Notes under the pieces: model-generated
Databases searched by the model: none
The model's input: the letters and a program-made list of their open reading frames with translations, nothing else
Told to the model about the DNA's origin: nothing
In this document: positions 50,218-57,733 of the stretch, piece by piece
Numbering within the stretch: the first letter of the stretch is position 1
Layout: every line of letters begins with the position of its first letter
Program-made: the position numbers and the translations under genes
Origin: Candidatus Micrarchaeota archaeon
GTDB taxonomy: Archaea > B1Sed10-29 > WALL01 > WAMD01
Direction: 5' to 3'
DNA length: 62,080 nucleotides
NCBI GenBank assembly: GCA_964652335.1
Contig: CAZZDL010000001.1
Coordinates: 1-62,080, forward strand

Positions 50218-50931
50218 TTATTGCGGTGTTCTGGGACCCCCCTTAGTTCCGGTATTCTGGTCCGGTTGTCTGAATAGATCTGTCAGAAACATCCTTGCCC
50301 TTTCCATGTCTGGCTTAAATGGGAGGTCTATTGTGCTCCCATAGTCTAGAATTTTCTCTAATGCTTCAATTTCTGGATAATCTGCAGGCAAAGAATACAA
50401 AAATAGCCTAATCTTGTCCTTTTCCTCTTTGCTCTTTGACAAAAGGGCTAAATTTAAGAATTCTAAAGGCAAATCTACAGCTATTACTTGCTTATTCCTT
50501 AATACGCGCTCCAACATTGCAATTATAGCCAAATTCATCTCTGGATCAATGCTTGGTAAAAATAATGTTTTTGCCTTGCTCTTGTTATTATTCTTGTTAT
50601 TATACCTCTTCTCTAAATAAACAAGAAAGTGAGTAATGTACAGGTTCCCTGCCCTCCTTGGCTTTGTTTCAAGGAAACGTTTGTTTAGCTCTTTAGCTAG
50701 CTTCCATGCCCGCGTGCCTTTGTTTATCTTGACAATAAGACCTTGCTCAACCAATTCGTTTATTAGTGGTCTTATCTTTTCCCCTGCTTTGTCCGGTCTT
50801 TTGCTCGGAAAAACCCTTCTTCCGATTTCTGTTATAGTTATCGGAATGGGAGATGAGCATGCTTTAAGTATTCTTTCAATTATCGGTTCTCTCCTATACT
50901 CTCTTTTTTCCATCTTTCCATTGTCTCTCAT
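50218..50931 (-). CDS. Island ORF: N-terminal wHTH protein (237 aa) whose last 12 codons contain the 22-nt recombination-like core
   Basis: ITITEIGRRVF...IRPLINELVEQGLIVKINKG; C-terminus QNTGTKGGPRTPQ. Confidence 0.55.
   Translation of the reverse strand: MRDNGKMEKREYRREPIIERILKACSSPIPITITEIGRRVFPSKRPDKAGEKIRPLINELVEQGLIVKINKGTRAWKLAKELNKRFLETKPRRAGNLYITHFLVYLEKRYNNKNNNKSKAKTLFLPSIDPEMNLAIIAMLERVLRNKQVIAVDLPLEFLNLALLSKSKEEKDKIRLFLYSLPADYPEIEALEKILDYGSTIDLPFKPDMERARMFLTDLFRQPDQNTGTKGGPRTPQ
50236..50257 (-). repeat. 22-nt core GAATACCGGAACTAAGGGGGGT, inverted copy (30-nt CCAGAATACCGGAACTAAGGGGGGTCCCAG at 50231-50260)
   Basis: Exact reverse-complement match to 57078-57099 and 57688-57709. Confidence 0.95.
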
Positions 50932-50996
50932 CTTTTGATATAATTAAGCTATAATATAAATATTTAATCCCCAATATCTGGGGTGTTAAACAACAG

Positions 50997-51008
50997 AAAA
51001 AGTGAGAG
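50997..51008 (+). repeat. Sixth copy of AAAAAGTGAGAG, upstream of ORF 50218-50931
   Basis: Exact 12-mer, followed by ATTT. Confidence 0.85.
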
Positions 51009-51120
51009 ATTTGCGCTATGGATTTAAACATGAAAAACCAAAAATAAACTGCAGATGATGAGGATCTTGAGTGCTGATAATGATGAAAGACGGGCGATCT
51101 GATGCAACAAACAGCAAACG

Positions 51121-51131
51121 TTTTTAAATCC
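51121..51131 (+). promoter_or_regulatory. Candidate TATA box (TTTTTAAATCC) for the tRNA-Met gene
   Basis: A/T box about 30 nt upstream of tRNA position 1. Confidence 0.3.
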
Positions 51132-51194
51132 ATAAGTTAAAAATATAAACTCAGCAGCGGGGTAGGGTAGCCAGGAGTGCCCGCCGGGCTCATA

Positions 51195-55162: not shown

Positions 55163-55897
55163 TTATTTCTTTCCCTTTTTCCAAACCCTGAAATATTCTA
55201 CTTCTGCTCTTCCCTTCTTGAACAAGCCCCAGTATCCAACCATATTTTTATAAAACGTTCTCCAGAAACCTTCTTCCTCAAACCGCCTTGTAGACGTCCT
55301 AACCCACGCCTTTGGACAAAAAACTTCTTTACCTTGGCTCTTCATTCTATTCGCTAATTCTACATCCTCAAGCATGCTTGTTTCCTCGTTGAACCCACCC
55401 ACAGCAAGGAATGCTTTCCTATCATACGCACAGTTATTTCCAGAGAATTGATGAAAACCAATAGCAGACGAGATGCGATACAAAAGATCTTGATCCAACC
55501 AAAAGATAAACCTCAAGTACAAGCTGGGAGAGTTTGCATAAACAGGTCCGCCAGCACCGACAACGCCCTTGGAAAAACAAGCATCATACGCCTTTAGCCA
55601 GTTTGGGTTTGGCCAAGTATCTGCATCTATGAACGCGACTATCTCCCCCCTGGCTTTTTTAGCACCAAAATTTCTAGCTGCTGCTGGCCCCCTTGTTTTT
55701 GGTGGTTCCCTGTAAACCTTGTTTGTATACTCTTTGGCTATATCATATGTAGAATCATCTCCACCCACAACCACAATAATCTCATAATCATCAAAATTCT
55801 GGTTTTTCAAGCCGTTCAGAGCTATCCTTATCCAATCTTCTTCATTATAAGCAGGAATTACTACTGAAAAACGCATAATAGAATTATGAAACCCCAT
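55163..55897 (-). CDS. Family 2 glycosyltransferase
   Basis: SVVIPAYNEE, FIDADT (DxD). Confidence 0.8.
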   Translation of the reverse strand: MGFHNSIMRFSVVIPAYNEEDWIRIALNGLKNQNFDDYEIIVVVGGDDSTYDIAKEYTNKVYREPPKTRGPAAARNFGAKKARGEIVAFIDADTWPNPNWLKAYDACFSKGVVGAGGPVYANSPSLYLRFIFWLDQDLLYRISSAIGFHQFSGNNCAYDRKAFLAVGGFNEETSMLEDVELANRMKSQGKEVFCPKAWVRTSTRRFEEEGFWRTFYKNMVGYWGLFKKGRAEVEYFRVWKKGKK

Positions 55898-55906
55898 TTA
55901 AATAAT

Positions 55907-56107
55907 TTAACTCGCCTGGCCAGCTTTTTCAAGCTCTCTAGTTATTATCCCGGCCACAATGTTTCTATCTCTCTTTGAATAAGAGAAGAAACCAAGCTCA
56001 TCAAGGACCTTCTTGTTCTTTTCAAAATCAGTAGTAAATCTTTCTGAAAACAGTTGCAAAAGTTTTTCAGCCTTTCTTTTTAATGGTTTTGTTCTTTGTT
56101 TTCCCAT
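55907..56107 (-). CDS. rps17e: Ribosomal protein eS17
   Basis: [35 protein letters not shown]. Confidence 0.85.
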   Translation of the reverse strand: MGKQRTKPLKRKAEKLLQLFSERFTTDFEKNKKVLDELGFFSYSKRDRNIVAGIITRELEKAGQAS

Positions 56108-56295
56108 TATTCCCTCACCACGTTTATCGGAATTGCATCATTCTCAAACTCAATTATTGCTAGTTCCAATGGCATTCTTATCTTTTTGGTTTTCACAAGA
56201 GTGGGTGCACCCATGGCTAGTTGTAGCGCCCTGGCACCCAATATCCTAGCCACCTCAAACCGAGTATACCCTTTGTTGTCTTCTATTATGTCCAT
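56107..56295 (-). CDS. rpoK: DNA-directed RNA polymerase subunit K (Rpo6)
   Basis: [21 protein letters not shown]. Confidence 0.85.
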
Positions 56296-56362
56296 TTAAT
56301 CACCACGGCAGAGATAGTTTTATTGCTAAACTCTTTTAAAAGCTTTTTCTCATAAAACCATT

Positions 56363-57733
56363 ATGCGCAAAAATGTTTTCCTTGTTAGGTTTGGTGAGAT
56401 ATGGTTAAAATCTGAAAGGACAAGGAGAAGACTAATTGCAATGCTAGAGCAGGACATATCTAGACGGTTGTCTGATGAAGGAATAAAAGCAAGGATTTAT
56501 AGTATTAGGGGAAGGATAGTTGTAGATCCTGAAGATGGTTGGGAACAGAGAGAAAAAATAAAGCGGGTTTTGGAAAGGATATTTGGCATCGTTTCTTTTT
56601 CTCCAGCAATAATGGTTGATACAAGACTTGAGGATATAGAGGAAGTTGTTCTCCAATTCGCAGAAAAAATTGACGGGACGTTCAAACTAGAAGTGAACAG
56701 AGCTGACAAAAGATTCCCAATTACGTCTATGGAACTGGCTAAGCGGTTGGGGGGCCGTTTGGTGGAGATGGGAAAAAGGGTTGATCTGAAAAGGCCAAAA
56801 CATATAATTGGTGTGGATATAAGGCAAGAGGCTAGCTTTGTTTTTATGGAAGAGTTTGCAGGGCCGGGTGGATTGCCCTATGGAAGCCAGGGCAGGGTTT
56901 TGGCTTTGTTCTCTGGGGGAATAGATTCTCCTGTCGCTGCTTGGTATATTACAAAAAGGGGTTGTGAGGTAGACTTGCTTTTTGTTAATATGTTTGATGA
57001 GTCATTAGAGAAGAGAGTTTATGACACTTACTTTACTTTAAAGGATTGGTTACCTGGAGCAAAGCTCTTTGTAGCCAGAATACCGGAACTAAGGGGGGTA
57101 TTGGCCAAGATAAAGGAAGGATACAGGCAAATAGCTTACAAGCGGTTTATTTACGGATTAGCAGAGGAATTTGCCATGAAAATTGGAGCGGATGCCATTG
57201 TAACGGGCGAATCTCTTGGTCAAGTTTCATCTCAAACCCTGAAGAGCCTGGTTGCGATAGAAGATAAGGTCAAAATGCCTGTTTTTAGGCCACTAATAGG
57301 CTTTGATAAGCACGAAACAATGAAAATAGCCAGGAAAATTGGCTGTTTAGGGCCAAGCGAGAGGGTTCCAGAGGTTTGTAGGATGGAGACCCATTCAATA
57401 ACTAATATTTCTTTAGATGTTGCTAGGAAACTGGACAACGAAATGCCAGACCCAAGGGGGTTCTTAGATAGGATAATTGAGGCAAAGACAGCGAAAGACC
57501 TGTTCTTTGACAAGGAGAGCATGGAAGGATACGAAATAATACACTATCCATTTGATAAGAAGCTGGACAAGGGGAAGAAGTATATATTTGTATGCAAGTC
57601 TGGTTTGGAAGCCAGCCTGGCAGCCTCAAAGGCAAGGGAGAAGGGAATAGAGGCATATTATCTAGACGAAGCAACCTTCATGAAGAGGAATACCGGAACT
57701 AAGGGGGGTCCCAGTGAGAATTCTTTGGAATGA
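56363..57733 (+). CDS. thiI: tRNA 4-thiouridine synthase ThiI (THUMP + PP-loop + short rhodanese-like tail)
   Basis: PP-loop SGGIDSPVA, GESLGQVSSQT, C-terminal FVCKSG. Confidence 0.9.
   Translation: MRKNVFLVRFGEIWLKSERTRRRLIAMLEQDISRRLSDEGIKARIYSIRGRIVVDPEDGWEQREKIKRVLERIFGIVSFSPAIMVDTRLEDIEEVVLQFAEKIDGTFKLEVNRADKRFPITSMELAKRLGGRLVEMGKRVDLKRPKHIIGVDIRQEASFVFMEEFAGPGGLPYGSQGRVLALFSGGIDSPVAAWYITKRGCEVDLLFVNMFDESLEKRVYDTYFTLKDWLPGAKLFVARIPELRGVLAKIKEGYRQIAYKRFIYGLAEEFAMKIGADAIVTGESLGQVSSQTLKSLVAIEDKVKMPVFRPLIGFDKHETMKIARKIGCLGPSERVPEVCRMETHSITNISLDVARKLDNEMPDPRGFLDRIIEAKTAKDLFFDKESMEGYEIIHYPFDKKLDKGKKYIFVCKSGLEASLAASKAREKGIEAYYLDEATFMKRNTGTKGGPSENSLE
57078..57099 (+). repeat. 22-nt core GAATACCGGAACTAAGGGGGGT, copy inside thiI (25 nt shared with 50231-50260 including CCA)
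   Basis: Exact match read directly. Confidence 0.95.
57688..57709 (+). repeat. 22-nt core GAATACCGGAACTAAGGGGGGT, copy at thiI 3' end (27 nt shared with 50231-50260 including CCCAG)
   Basis: Exact match read directly. Confidence 0.95.

Follow-up and report, generated by a model that had tools for sequence, protein, structure and literature searches.

SSV-type and pTN3-type elements are archaeal integrative elements with integrase-mediated attachment (att) sites. C-rich small RNAs (sRNAs) that mask Shine-Dalgarno sequences are known in Firmicutes (RsaE/RNAIII-type), and archaeal sRNAs target mRNAs in cis as well as in trans. Known patch mutations include quasi-palindrome correction and short-patch conversion in Sulfolobus. 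Partial-intergenic and intragenic invertons have been documented too, few of them in archaea and one in thiC (bioRxiv 10.1101/2023.03.11.532203), and the origin recognition box (ORB) of Euryarchaeota has the consensus GTTCCAGTGGAAAC-AAA----GGGGG (PMC1868953). Here, we describe a 22-nucleotide (nt) sequence, GAATACCGGAACTAAGGGGGGT, that is present exactly three times in a stretch of archaeal DNA, once at the end of an open reading frame that we call ORF A and twice in thiI, the gene for tRNA 4-thiouridine synthase. The stretch analyzed, hereafter the window, is 62,080 nt long (GCA_964652335.1, contig CAZZDL010000001.1, positions 1–62,080). A sequence-only reading of the window had proposed that the three copies are a site-specific recombination footprint linking the edge of an inserted island to thiI. 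Because copies stay identical within each genome, the sequence seems to be a conserved element of pairing or recombination and not a scar left by insertion of an island.

Three Copies of a Short Sequence in the Window

The cores are at positions 50236–50257 (− strand), 57078–57099 (+), and 57688–57709 (+), and we refer to the copies as A, B, and C, respectively (table 1). The observation itself is far from chance, as none of 100 shuffles held any match even with three mismatches permitted, and the 62 kb holds no copy beyond the three at up to three mismatches. Copies A and C are identical over 27 nt (50231–50257 and 57688–57714; the core plus CCCAG), copies A and B over 25 nt (50236–50260 and 57075–57099; CCA plus the core), and copies B and C over a common stretch of 22 nt. 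Between thiI and the rest of the window, the next match in length spans 15 nt. Dyad symmetry is absent from the site. Three more public assemblies, 99.9% identical to the window, have the same three copies and are collinear across all three.

The sequence-only reading had the coordinates exactly right, and its account of the extensions, with CCA shared by copies A and B and CCCAG shared by copies A and C, is as it stated. Translation also confirmed its reading frames. Copy B is read as IPELRGV (within ARIPELRGV) in the frame of thiI, and the other two copies encode the two NTGTKGG ends. Before their stop codons, ORF A ends in ...DQNTGTKGGPRTPQ (also given as ...QNTGTKGGPRTPQ) and thiI in ...KRNTGTKGGPSENSLE (also given as ...RNTGTKGGPSENSLE). 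As it predicted, deletion from B to C in silico fuses ThiI in frame to the downstream metallophosphoesterase, yielding a 470-amino acid (aa) protein composed of ThiI residues 1–246, VP, and the metallophosphoesterase. Read from the sequence, the G-run of copy C is the Shine-Dalgarno sequence of the metallophosphoesterase gene, 5 nt upstream of its GTG start codon at 57714. The tRNAi-Met gene that had been placed inside the segment bounded by the inverted copies is real and is split by an intron. No recombinase was seen in the window, and Pfam scans of nearly all ORFs of at least 120 aa agree.

Copies of the Element in Related Genomes

We recovered the corresponding loci of six other genomes with ThiI and a 263-aa winged helix-turn-helix (wHTH) protein as handles. 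In seven of seven genomes, a copy of the sequence, termed copy (i), is at the 3′ end of ORF A beside a repeat array, at a distance of 5–30 nt. Copy A is copy (i) of the window. The 10 bases TTCCGGTATT of copy (i) do not vary among the seven genomes, and TA[CG]TTCCGGTATTC is conserved for the most part. The best-supported interpretation of these alignments is an asymmetric element of ∼28–30 nt that has the 22-mer as its core and the consensus YCCAGAATACNGGAASTAAGGGGGGTCYCC, or, in the form of a pattern, AATACNGGAAST(N0-3)GGGGG. In one genome (L013), copy (i) begins at the stop codon of ORF A, the ORF ending at the first bases of the element, and the constraint therefore acts on nucleotides and not on the NTGSKG peptide. 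Likewise, the best-supported history is one in which copy (i) is the ancestral, or master, copy.

The other copies differ in location among lineages. Beyond copy (i), the window has one at thiI codon 239 (B) and one at the junction of thiI and the metallophosphoesterase gene (C). The sister species (L006 and L016) has the junction copy only, which is identical over 27 nt to its own copy (i), and at thiI codon 239 it has the diverged native sequence GCT AGT ATA CCT GAG TTA AAA AGC CAC, matching at 14 of 22 positions. In L011, in L013, and in L010 together with L012, thiI has a copy at codon ∼128 and a further copy, termed copy (ii), is ∼100 nt upstream of the start of ORF A. The thiI copy and copy (ii) of L011 form a perfect 28-nt inverted pair, with 86% identity over 42 nt. 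In three relatives, copy (ii) is in the leader of the transcription unit of a C/D box sRNA and initiator tRNA (tRNAiMet), where the window has none. L014 has a copy at thiI codon ∼31 and a 14-mer in the gene for wHTH-143. A further site-like stretch is at thiI codon ∼160 of L010, in another frame (FTGSVGGPGG), and a weaker copy is in the N-terminus of ORF A of L016 (KIQELGGV). The junction of thiI and the metallophosphoesterase gene in L010 lacks a copy. Partial copies of the element are also present inside the arrays of L011 and L013.

Searches of genome, viral, and metagenome collections with the exact 22-mer returned no matches, and neither did a search of viral contigs with a degenerate 19-mer. 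A degenerate 21-mer had one match among GTDB genomes, with ∼1 expected by chance, in a distant uncultured archaeon (L007). We retained this match because a second, inverted copy is 559 nt away and because a PRC homolog is present. The inverted motif pair of L007 (CAZKAN010000024; 5295–7020) is 24 nt long and 83% identical, and it flanks a 559-bp segment that holds a PRC-barrel gene (51% identical to that of the window) and its promoter. The pair is 117 nt downstream of a gene for a XerA-like tyrosine recombinase (Pfam, 1e-48), and an intron-less tRNAiMet and GTAATTAC repeats are nearby. The next ORF has one copy as its ribosome-binding region (GGGGGGT, 7 nt, ATG), and the complement of the other is on the strand that is transcribed, downstream of the gene for the recombinase. 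This pair is a good candidate for an inverton in its own right.

Patch Anatomy and Covariation of Copies

We examined the anatomy of the internal copies in an alignment of six ThiI proteins and their codons. Internal copies replace native thiI codons, as opposed to adding 8–10 codons, and both flanks are native thiI. Patching left the length of thiI unchanged at codon 31, added three codons at codon 128, and removed one at codon 239; in the thiI of the window, this one-codon deletion directly follows patch B. Internal patches read R-I-x-E-[LV]-R-G, and the peptides of orthologs are similar (R-R-L-S-D-E-G, R-L-V-E-M-G, and R-V-P-E-L-R-E); the other replaced-peptide reading of the element is T-G-S-K-G-G-P. 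Because their flanks are native and the peptide they replace is similar, the internal copies are patches and not crossover joints. All eight gene-internal copies (copy (i), five copies in thiI, and one each in ORF A and a wHTH gene) are on the sense strand of their host gene, and this rule holds though two antisense frames are also free of stop codons.

Copies agree within genomes and differ between them. All three copies of the window have GAACTA, whereas both copies of L016 have GAAGTA. The pair of L011 is identical at 28 of 28 positions, and its GAATACAGG...GGGGGGAGTCCCT was found in no other genome examined. Copy (ii) of L012 and the thiI copy of L010 have TAAAGGGGG in common. The G-run of copy (i) is degraded where a copy (ii) exists (L012 and L013), and otherwise copy (i) is a full match to the thiI copy. 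Covariation within genomes indicates exchange of sequence among copies, and, together with the relaxation of copy (i), it points to a pairwise relation between one upstream copy and thiI, kept up either by exchange or by selection for identity. The link between the edge of ORF A and thiI that the sequence-only reading had noticed is real and recurs in relatives (the 28-nt pair of L011 and the 27-nt pair of L016). Stretches of 26–40 nt that are conserved between the window and L006 occur elsewhere too. The argument rests on covariation and copy number, because conservation of copy C alone is not unusual.

The copies could have no function and instead be accidental templated patches, made from copy (i) by template switching or ectopic conversion and surviving wherever the resulting peptide was tolerated. 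Consistent with such an origin, patches sit at places with a native peptide similar to R-[IL]-x-E-[LV]-x-G, and some copies are decaying (codon 128 of L010, and copy (i) of L013 and of L012). Genes and DNA other than thiI have patches too, namely the wHTH gene of L014, ORF A of L016 at its N-terminus, and the arrays of L011 and L013 with their partial copies. However, ∼5 of 9 independent copy events are in thiI, which makes up ∼10% of the local sequence, and copy (i) is conserved at the level of nucleotides in all seven genomes. Perfect identity over 22–28 nt also persists in the window, L016, and L011 while flanking genes have ∼50% protein identity, which would require ongoing homogenization or selection, and the same motif pair is present in the distant L007. 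We consider an absence of function improbable.

Synteny of the Region Surrounding Copy A

The gene content of the window is archaeal (PIN_5, Pab1020-type RNA ligase, archaeal DnaG, PolD, and Orc1/Cdc6). The nearest ThiI proteins are just 46–51% identical, and the named matches are to DPANN-type archaea. We take the element to be specific to a single lineage of uncultured archaea, probably of DPANN type. Among loci that reach far enough, the order of genes is common. On the left are Lhr helicase, (HAD), wHTH-146, a 119-aa ORF, AF_0843, wHTH-95, and wHTH-263; on the right are the array, ORF A, the C/D box sRNA, tRNAiMet, apgM, PIN_5, RNA ligase, PRC, GT2, S17e, Rpb6, and thiI. Across the seven genomes, protein identity in this syntenic block is 32–51%, with orthologs of ORF A (32–48% identity) in every recovered locus, and the cluster to the left of copy A has diverged to a degree similar to that of core genes. 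Judged by its synteny in seven genomes and its core-like divergence, the DNA to the left of copy A has been inherited vertically and is not an island, contrary to the sequence-only reading. No recovered related genome has an empty site. The wHTH cluster showed no similarity to phage or plasmid records, its matches in PHROGs were to generic wHTH regulators only, and a search of metagenome contigs for related loci with wHTH alignments found none.

These patterns bear directly on the proposal that the copies are att-type crossover products of integration and excision of an island, with copy A as its right edge and the TTACGTAA array as arm-type sites. The exact repeats are real, and one of them adjoins an array as well as a gene cluster, near a tRNA gene, that is made up of small wHTH and orphan genes. 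Exact short repeats near a tRNA gene and small DNA-binding genes are likewise features of SSV-type and pTN3-type att sites, and the integrase-bearing, element-like region of L007 next to tRNAiMet carries the motif. Nevertheless, the att reading is largely refuted by the conserved synteny, and we regard it as very improbable. In contrast to the repeats of SSV-type and pTN3-type elements, those described here are not direct around the cluster, they have no integrase, and the cluster is vertically inherited; Pfam scans and tblastn identified no integrase in the window or in the loci of relatives. The core is not derived from a tRNA, as it would be in att sites of archaeal integrative elements. 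Copy A is inverted relative to B and C, and the direct repeats B and C flank coding sequence of thiI rather than the cluster, an arrangement that is not that of attL and attR. Similarity to viral contigs was lacking as well, as was dyad symmetry of the site, and no variant junctions were detected in assemblies or in the protein collection.

The extensions of copy A, which had been taken for a left-arm/right-arm mosaic produced by crossover, have a simpler explanation. Native thiI on both flanks of copy B marks it as an internal patch, the extensions in common are just 3 and 5 nt, and a full site (CA, the core, and CCCAG) is already at the junction of thiI and the metallophosphoesterase gene in the sister species. 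The apparent mosaic amounts to a full 30-nt element (copy A and the junction copy of L016) next to two partial patches. The array is conserved beside copy A in every genome, but there is no sign that it provides arm-type sites. Of the proposed footprint, what stands is that the copies are related by copying, with exchange between the edge of ORF A and thiI; crossover at att sites of an island does not.

Proposed Templated Copying and Antisense Pairing

We tentatively favor an explanation in which nonreciprocal copying under selection, by short-patch conversion or template switching, generated the copies and antisense pairing is their function. From the distribution, conservation, covariation, anatomy, and synteny of the copies, we infer gene conversion as the process and antisense pairing as the function. 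A master copy (i) would have been inherited vertically with its whole neighborhood, beside the conserved array. In separate lineages, the element would have been written over short stretches of thiI, in frame and on the sense strand, at codons ∼31, ∼128, ∼160, and ∼239 and at the junction. Nonreciprocal short-patch gene conversion or template switching at sites of microhomology could have done so, with selection retaining the result, and copies would subsequently have been homogenized within a genome while drifting between genomes. Such a process resembles known template switching and short-patch conversion in that a short stretch is made identical to a nearby, often inverted, sequence without crossover. 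It differs in that the donor is 6–7 kb away, the same donor and recipient are reused across lineages, and identity is maintained.

The selected property may be complementarity between the upstream copy and thiI. The plus strand at 50231–50260 is a perfect complement of the thiI mRNA at B (25 nt) and C (27 nt), and copy (ii) of L011 is perfectly complementary to thiI over 28 nt. Transcription probably covers the strand opposite the upstream copy. In L011, L012, and L013, the complement of copy (ii) is 10–80 nt downstream of a conserved TATA and GTGAGAG start, and would be in the 5′ leader of the precursor of the C/D box sRNA and tRNAiMet; because this start leads into those two genes, the complement should belong to an abundant precursor. 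In the window, read-through from the convergent wHTH-263 gene would carry the complement of copy A. The resulting C-rich antisense segment is predicted to pair with the thiI mRNA and to mask the Shine-Dalgarno sequence of the metallophosphoesterase gene. In L016 and L007, as in the window, the next gene has the G-run as its Shine-Dalgarno sequence. By a hand count, which is weak evidence, five of the eight differences between partner copies would be G-U wobbles between the thiI mRNA and a plus-strand transcript. The sense-strand rule, the tolerance of several direct copies, and the weak excess of G-U-compatible differences fit a model of antisense pairing.

The arrangement has parallels in C-rich antisense sRNAs, in that a ribosome-binding site, which is G-rich, and coding sequence of the target mRNA have their complement in a C-rich segment and the partners covary. 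As for sRNAs derived from leaders or 3′ untranslated regions, the candidate antisense segment is in the leader of a precursor or downstream of a convergent gene. Unlike C-rich sRNAs, which pair through a short seed, complementarity here is perfect over 22–28 nt, and the sites were seemingly made by copying rather than by point mutation. A further possibility, rather doubtful in our view, is that a small archaeal lineage has a hitherto undescribed mode of regulatory wiring. A ∼28-nt tag would be written repeatedly into thiI by templated patching, in frame and at any position where it is tolerated, and its complement would travel on the leader of the precursor of the C/D box sRNA and tRNAiMet or on the tail of the transcript of the convergent regulator. 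Production of the initiator tRNA or of the regulator would thereby be coupled, via RNA pairing, to ThiI and the phosphoesterase.

Several points weigh against copying with antisense pairing. In the window, a transcript that covers the complement of copy A would depend on the convergent gene, and no promoter was found at a conserved distance. Regulatory antisense pairing does not need 22–28 perfect bases, and perfect identity therefore better fits exchange at the level of DNA. We know of no mechanism that writes a 25-nt patch from a donor 6–7 kb away via microhomology. The sample of wobbles is small and its events are nonindependent, copy (i) of L011 has a mismatch to the thiI copy at the variable base (G-A), and genome-specific covariation is predicted equally by gene conversion and by compensatory change. 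The view is of 62 kb of a genome, beyond which other copies may exist. Last, the sole recombinase near any copy, that of L007, favors inversion.

Possible Inversion of DNA between Copies

In a model of inversion, the locus is a partial-intergenic inverton with the upstream and thiI copies as its arms. The recombinase would be encoded elsewhere, or homologous recombination would suffice, and recombination between arms would maintain their identity. Inversion between A and B would truncate ThiI, whereas the A and C arms would turn around 7.4 kb and exchange no more than the final four to six codons of both ORFs. Identical inverted repeats are a hallmark of invertons, and the upstream and thiI copies are inverted in every genome in which both are visible. 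The inverted pairs that bound a segment are of 25 nt (A and B), 27 nt (A and C), 28 nt (L011), and 27 nt (L016), and L007 has its motif pair of 24 nt at 83% identity. A variable position in thiI combined with a constant inverted partner is what an on/off switch of thiI would need, and copies A and C are in the same frame such that inversion between them keeps both ORFs intact. The locus is also like invertons (Chanin et al.) in having inverted repeats of 20–30 nt that are identical within a genome, one arm in a coding gene and the other outside of it, and, in the distant L007, a XerA-like tyrosine recombinase beside the pair. Like the inverton of thiC, its target is a vitamin or tRNA-modification gene.

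Other observations are difficult to reconcile with inversion. Neither Pfam scans nor tblastn with the recombinase of L007 identified a recombinase in the window or in the seven loci. The locus is thus unlike invertons in that no recombinase of this lineage is close by, and unlike them too in that its site lacks dyad symmetry. At the level of assemblies, orientation is the same in all judgeable relatives and in the three independent assemblies; L015 alone is rearranged, with breakpoints away from the copies. None of five proteins predicted to result from inversion or deletion was present in a collection of 15 billion proteins, and the 90% clusters of ThiI and of ORF A contain the reference form only. 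The segment of 6–7 kb comprises housekeeping genes, the thiI arm is at four codon positions, and extra copies are direct, all of which differ from described invertons. Recombination between direct repeats (B and C, or copies (i) and (ii) around ORF A in three genomes) would cause deletions that are irreversible and lethal. Inversion also leaves unexplained the sense-strand rule for copies direct to copy (i) and the use of the G-run as a ribosome-binding site. We consider inversion unlikely, albeit a serious competitor, and in our judgment antisense pairing ranks above it by little.

Possible Binding Sites and Other Candidate Identities

Copies might instead be dispersed binding sites on DNA for one protein, such as Orc1/Cdc6 (gene at 20120–21358), ORF A, or a wHTH protein from the cluster. 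In that case, copies in thiI would be secondary sites whose similarity is kept through binding of that one protein, and copy (i) and the array would form an operator, an iteron, or an origin-like unit. Copy (i) always abuts the array, within 5–30 nt, and two clusters of repeats surround an AT-rich spacer in the manner of an iteron or origin. The GGAA core followed by a G-string loosely resembles the ORB consensus, genes for Orc1/Cdc6 and PolD are in the window, and the cluster is rich in wHTH proteins. Yet the match to ORBs is poor, with no TTCCA-N-TGGAA dyad and the G-string spaced by 2 nt instead of 7, and the region is 30 kb from orc1/cdc6. There is no obvious use for binding sites in coding sequence at positions that shift among lineages and always in thiI. 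Selection by one protein would hold an ancestral sequence, not the genome-specific covariation exemplified by the 28-mer of L011. We find such a role quite unlikely.

The element shares with ORBs (PMC1868953, PMC4010727) an asymmetric site, a GGAA core with a G-string, an AT-rich and repeat-flanked neighbor, and inverted copies. It is unlike ORBs in its poor match to the consensus and in having copies in coding sequence, kilobases apart and not beside orc1/cdc6. As an identity, ORB was rejected on two grounds: just GGAA and a G-run are in common with AATACCGGAAGTAAGGGGGG, with different spacing, and the layout is wrong, with partner copies in coding sequence 6.8–7.4 kb away and orc1/cdc6 at a distance of 30 kb. 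A miniature inverted-repeat transposable element, the terminal inverted repeat of an insertion sequence, and a dispersed repeat were rejected given three copies in 62 kb at up to three mismatches and patches that replace rather than insert. Likewise rejected was a diversity-generating retroelement (with template and variable repeats); Pfam scans found no reverse transcriptase domain, copies are identical, and differences between genomes are not restricted to adenines. Defining features are missing for a C/D box sRNA, a tRNA fragment, a clustered regularly interspaced short palindromic repeat (CRISPR), a dif/Xer site, and a programmed frameshift site. Similarity of the site to the junction of an intron-less tRNAiMet, considered as a candidate target of a homing endonuclease, is ∼12 of 22 and not significant.

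Significance of the Element

If the element is a pairing or switching device, it offers a rare view of a regulatory link to a core tRNA-modification gene that has been rebuilt repeatedly at new coding positions, and it does so in uncultured archaea that are poorly known and whose regulation is almost entirely undescribed. The process itself would be a mutational one that overwrites ∼25 nt of a gene from a donor at a distance of kilobases and thereafter maintains the identity of the copies. If inversion is instead correct, a conserved, gene-disrupting inverton would be added to the very few that are known in archaea. The locus also calls for caution regarding short exact repeats in metagenome-assembled genomes, as an apparent att footprint proved to be vertically inherited.

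Genes and Features of the Locus

Table 1. Coordinates of the Copies of the Element and of Neighboring Features in the Window
Feature	Position	Strand	Description
wHTH-263 gene	49257..50048	+	Coiled-coil and wHTH regulator, 263 aa; Pfam HTH_24; convergent with ORF A
Repeat array	50040..50213		Repeats TTACGTAA, GTTGACATGT, and GTCAGCTGAC on both sides of a spacer rich in AT; separates ORF A from the convergent wHTH gene
ORF A	50218..50931	−	237 aa; N-terminal winged-helix-like region; no known family; conserved in relatives
Copy A, copy (i)	50231..50260	−	Full element CCAGAATACCGGAACTAAGGGGGGTCCCAG; last codons of ORF A; 27 nt from the array
C/D box sRNA	51051..51104	+	Precedes tRNAiMet by ∼50 nt; matches several archaeal C/D families below threshold (Rfam)
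tRNAiMet(CAT)	51156..51645	+	Exons 51156–51195 and 51611–51645; 415-nt intron at 37/38; read directly
thiI	56363..57733	+	tRNA 4-thiouridine synthase; ferredoxin-like, THUMP, PP-loop, and C-terminal rhodanese-like domains (Pfam); host of copies B and C
Copy B	57075..57099	+	CCAGAATACCGGAACTAAGGGGGGT; thiI codons 238–246 (ARIPELRGV); in-frame patch, specific to the window
Copy C	57688..57714	+	GAATACCGGAACTAAGGGGGGTCCCAG; last codons of thiI
Metallophosphoesterase gene	57714..58385	+	Ribosome-binding site inside copy C

The C-terminal NTG[ST]KG codons of ORF A hold copy (i). A word-based search with the single sequence of ORF A matched only itself, its homologs having been found via synteny, and a PDB profile search had no match. 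A structure predicted by AlphaFold from the single sequence had a predicted local distance difference test (pLDDT) score of 47, too poor for a fold search. Orthologs of wHTH-263 are 38–51% identical in the six other genomes. Adjacency of thiI and the metallophosphoesterase gene is kept in L006/L016, L010, and L013.

Repeats of the array fall in families D2, D16, I14, and I18, and equivalent arrays are between the orthologous genes of L011 (1260–1560), L012 (10650–10930), L013 (5225–5535), and L014 (10775–10860), as well as of L015. With two clusters flanking an AT-rich spacer, the array resembles an iteron, operator, or origin-like region. An arrangement of Orc1/Cdc6 and PolD genes flanks oriC in many Euryarchaeota; in the window, the Orc1/Cdc6 gene (20120–21358, −) adjoins genes for SepF and for the large and small subunits of PolD (22565–27341, −).

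The C/D box sRNA has the boxes C (ATGATGA), D′ (CTGA), C′ (ATGATGA), and D (CTGA), and these and both guides are conserved in L011, L012, L013, and L015. Within the window, targets of the guides do not exceed chance. The tRNAiMet gene was missed by ARAGORN and Rfam because its 415-nt intron splits it. The intron is closed by a 10-bp stem (window; L008 660–1147) and has an ORF of ∼135 aa with one frameshift, placed differently in the window and L011. The gene lacks an intron in the sister species (L016) and in L012, L013, L014, L015, and L007, and the intron therefore looks mobile. A motif of the intron ORF, LYWCEGDK, resembles the second LAGLIDADG motif of I-DmoI, although Pfam and PDB searches gave no support.

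A second short sequence common to coding and noncoding DNA at the locus is AAAAAGTGAGAGAT, which occurs three times inside the wHTH-263 gene (49295–49471), 72 and 81 nt apart and encoding KSERS repeats, and again at 50996–51011, the likely start of the transcription unit of the C/D box sRNA and tRNAiMet. At this start, GTGAGAG is conserved in L011, L012, and L013. The longest inverted repeat of the window (46270–46308 and 51010–51048; 39 nt, 72%) brackets the wHTH cluster and ORF A, running from after a 220-aa ORF to the leader of the C/D box sRNA.

Two other regions have been rearranged in this lineage. In L015 (GCA_015522455.1, 10636–12684), an acetyltransferase gene follows tRNAiMet, and GT2 (+) and PRC (−) have an order and orientation opposite to those of other relatives, owing to a local inversion or rearrangement with breakpoints away from the repeat copies. 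The 3′ end of thiI (57480–57690 in the window; also in L006, L010, L013, and L014) is a hot spot of rearrangement. The C-terminal rhodanese-like domain of ThiI is present in the window and L011 and absent in L006/L016, L010, L013, and L014, and in L011 (9239–11685) and L014 (17534–19956) an inserted convergent pair of HerA (DUF87) and NurA genes separates thiI from the metallophosphoesterase gene.

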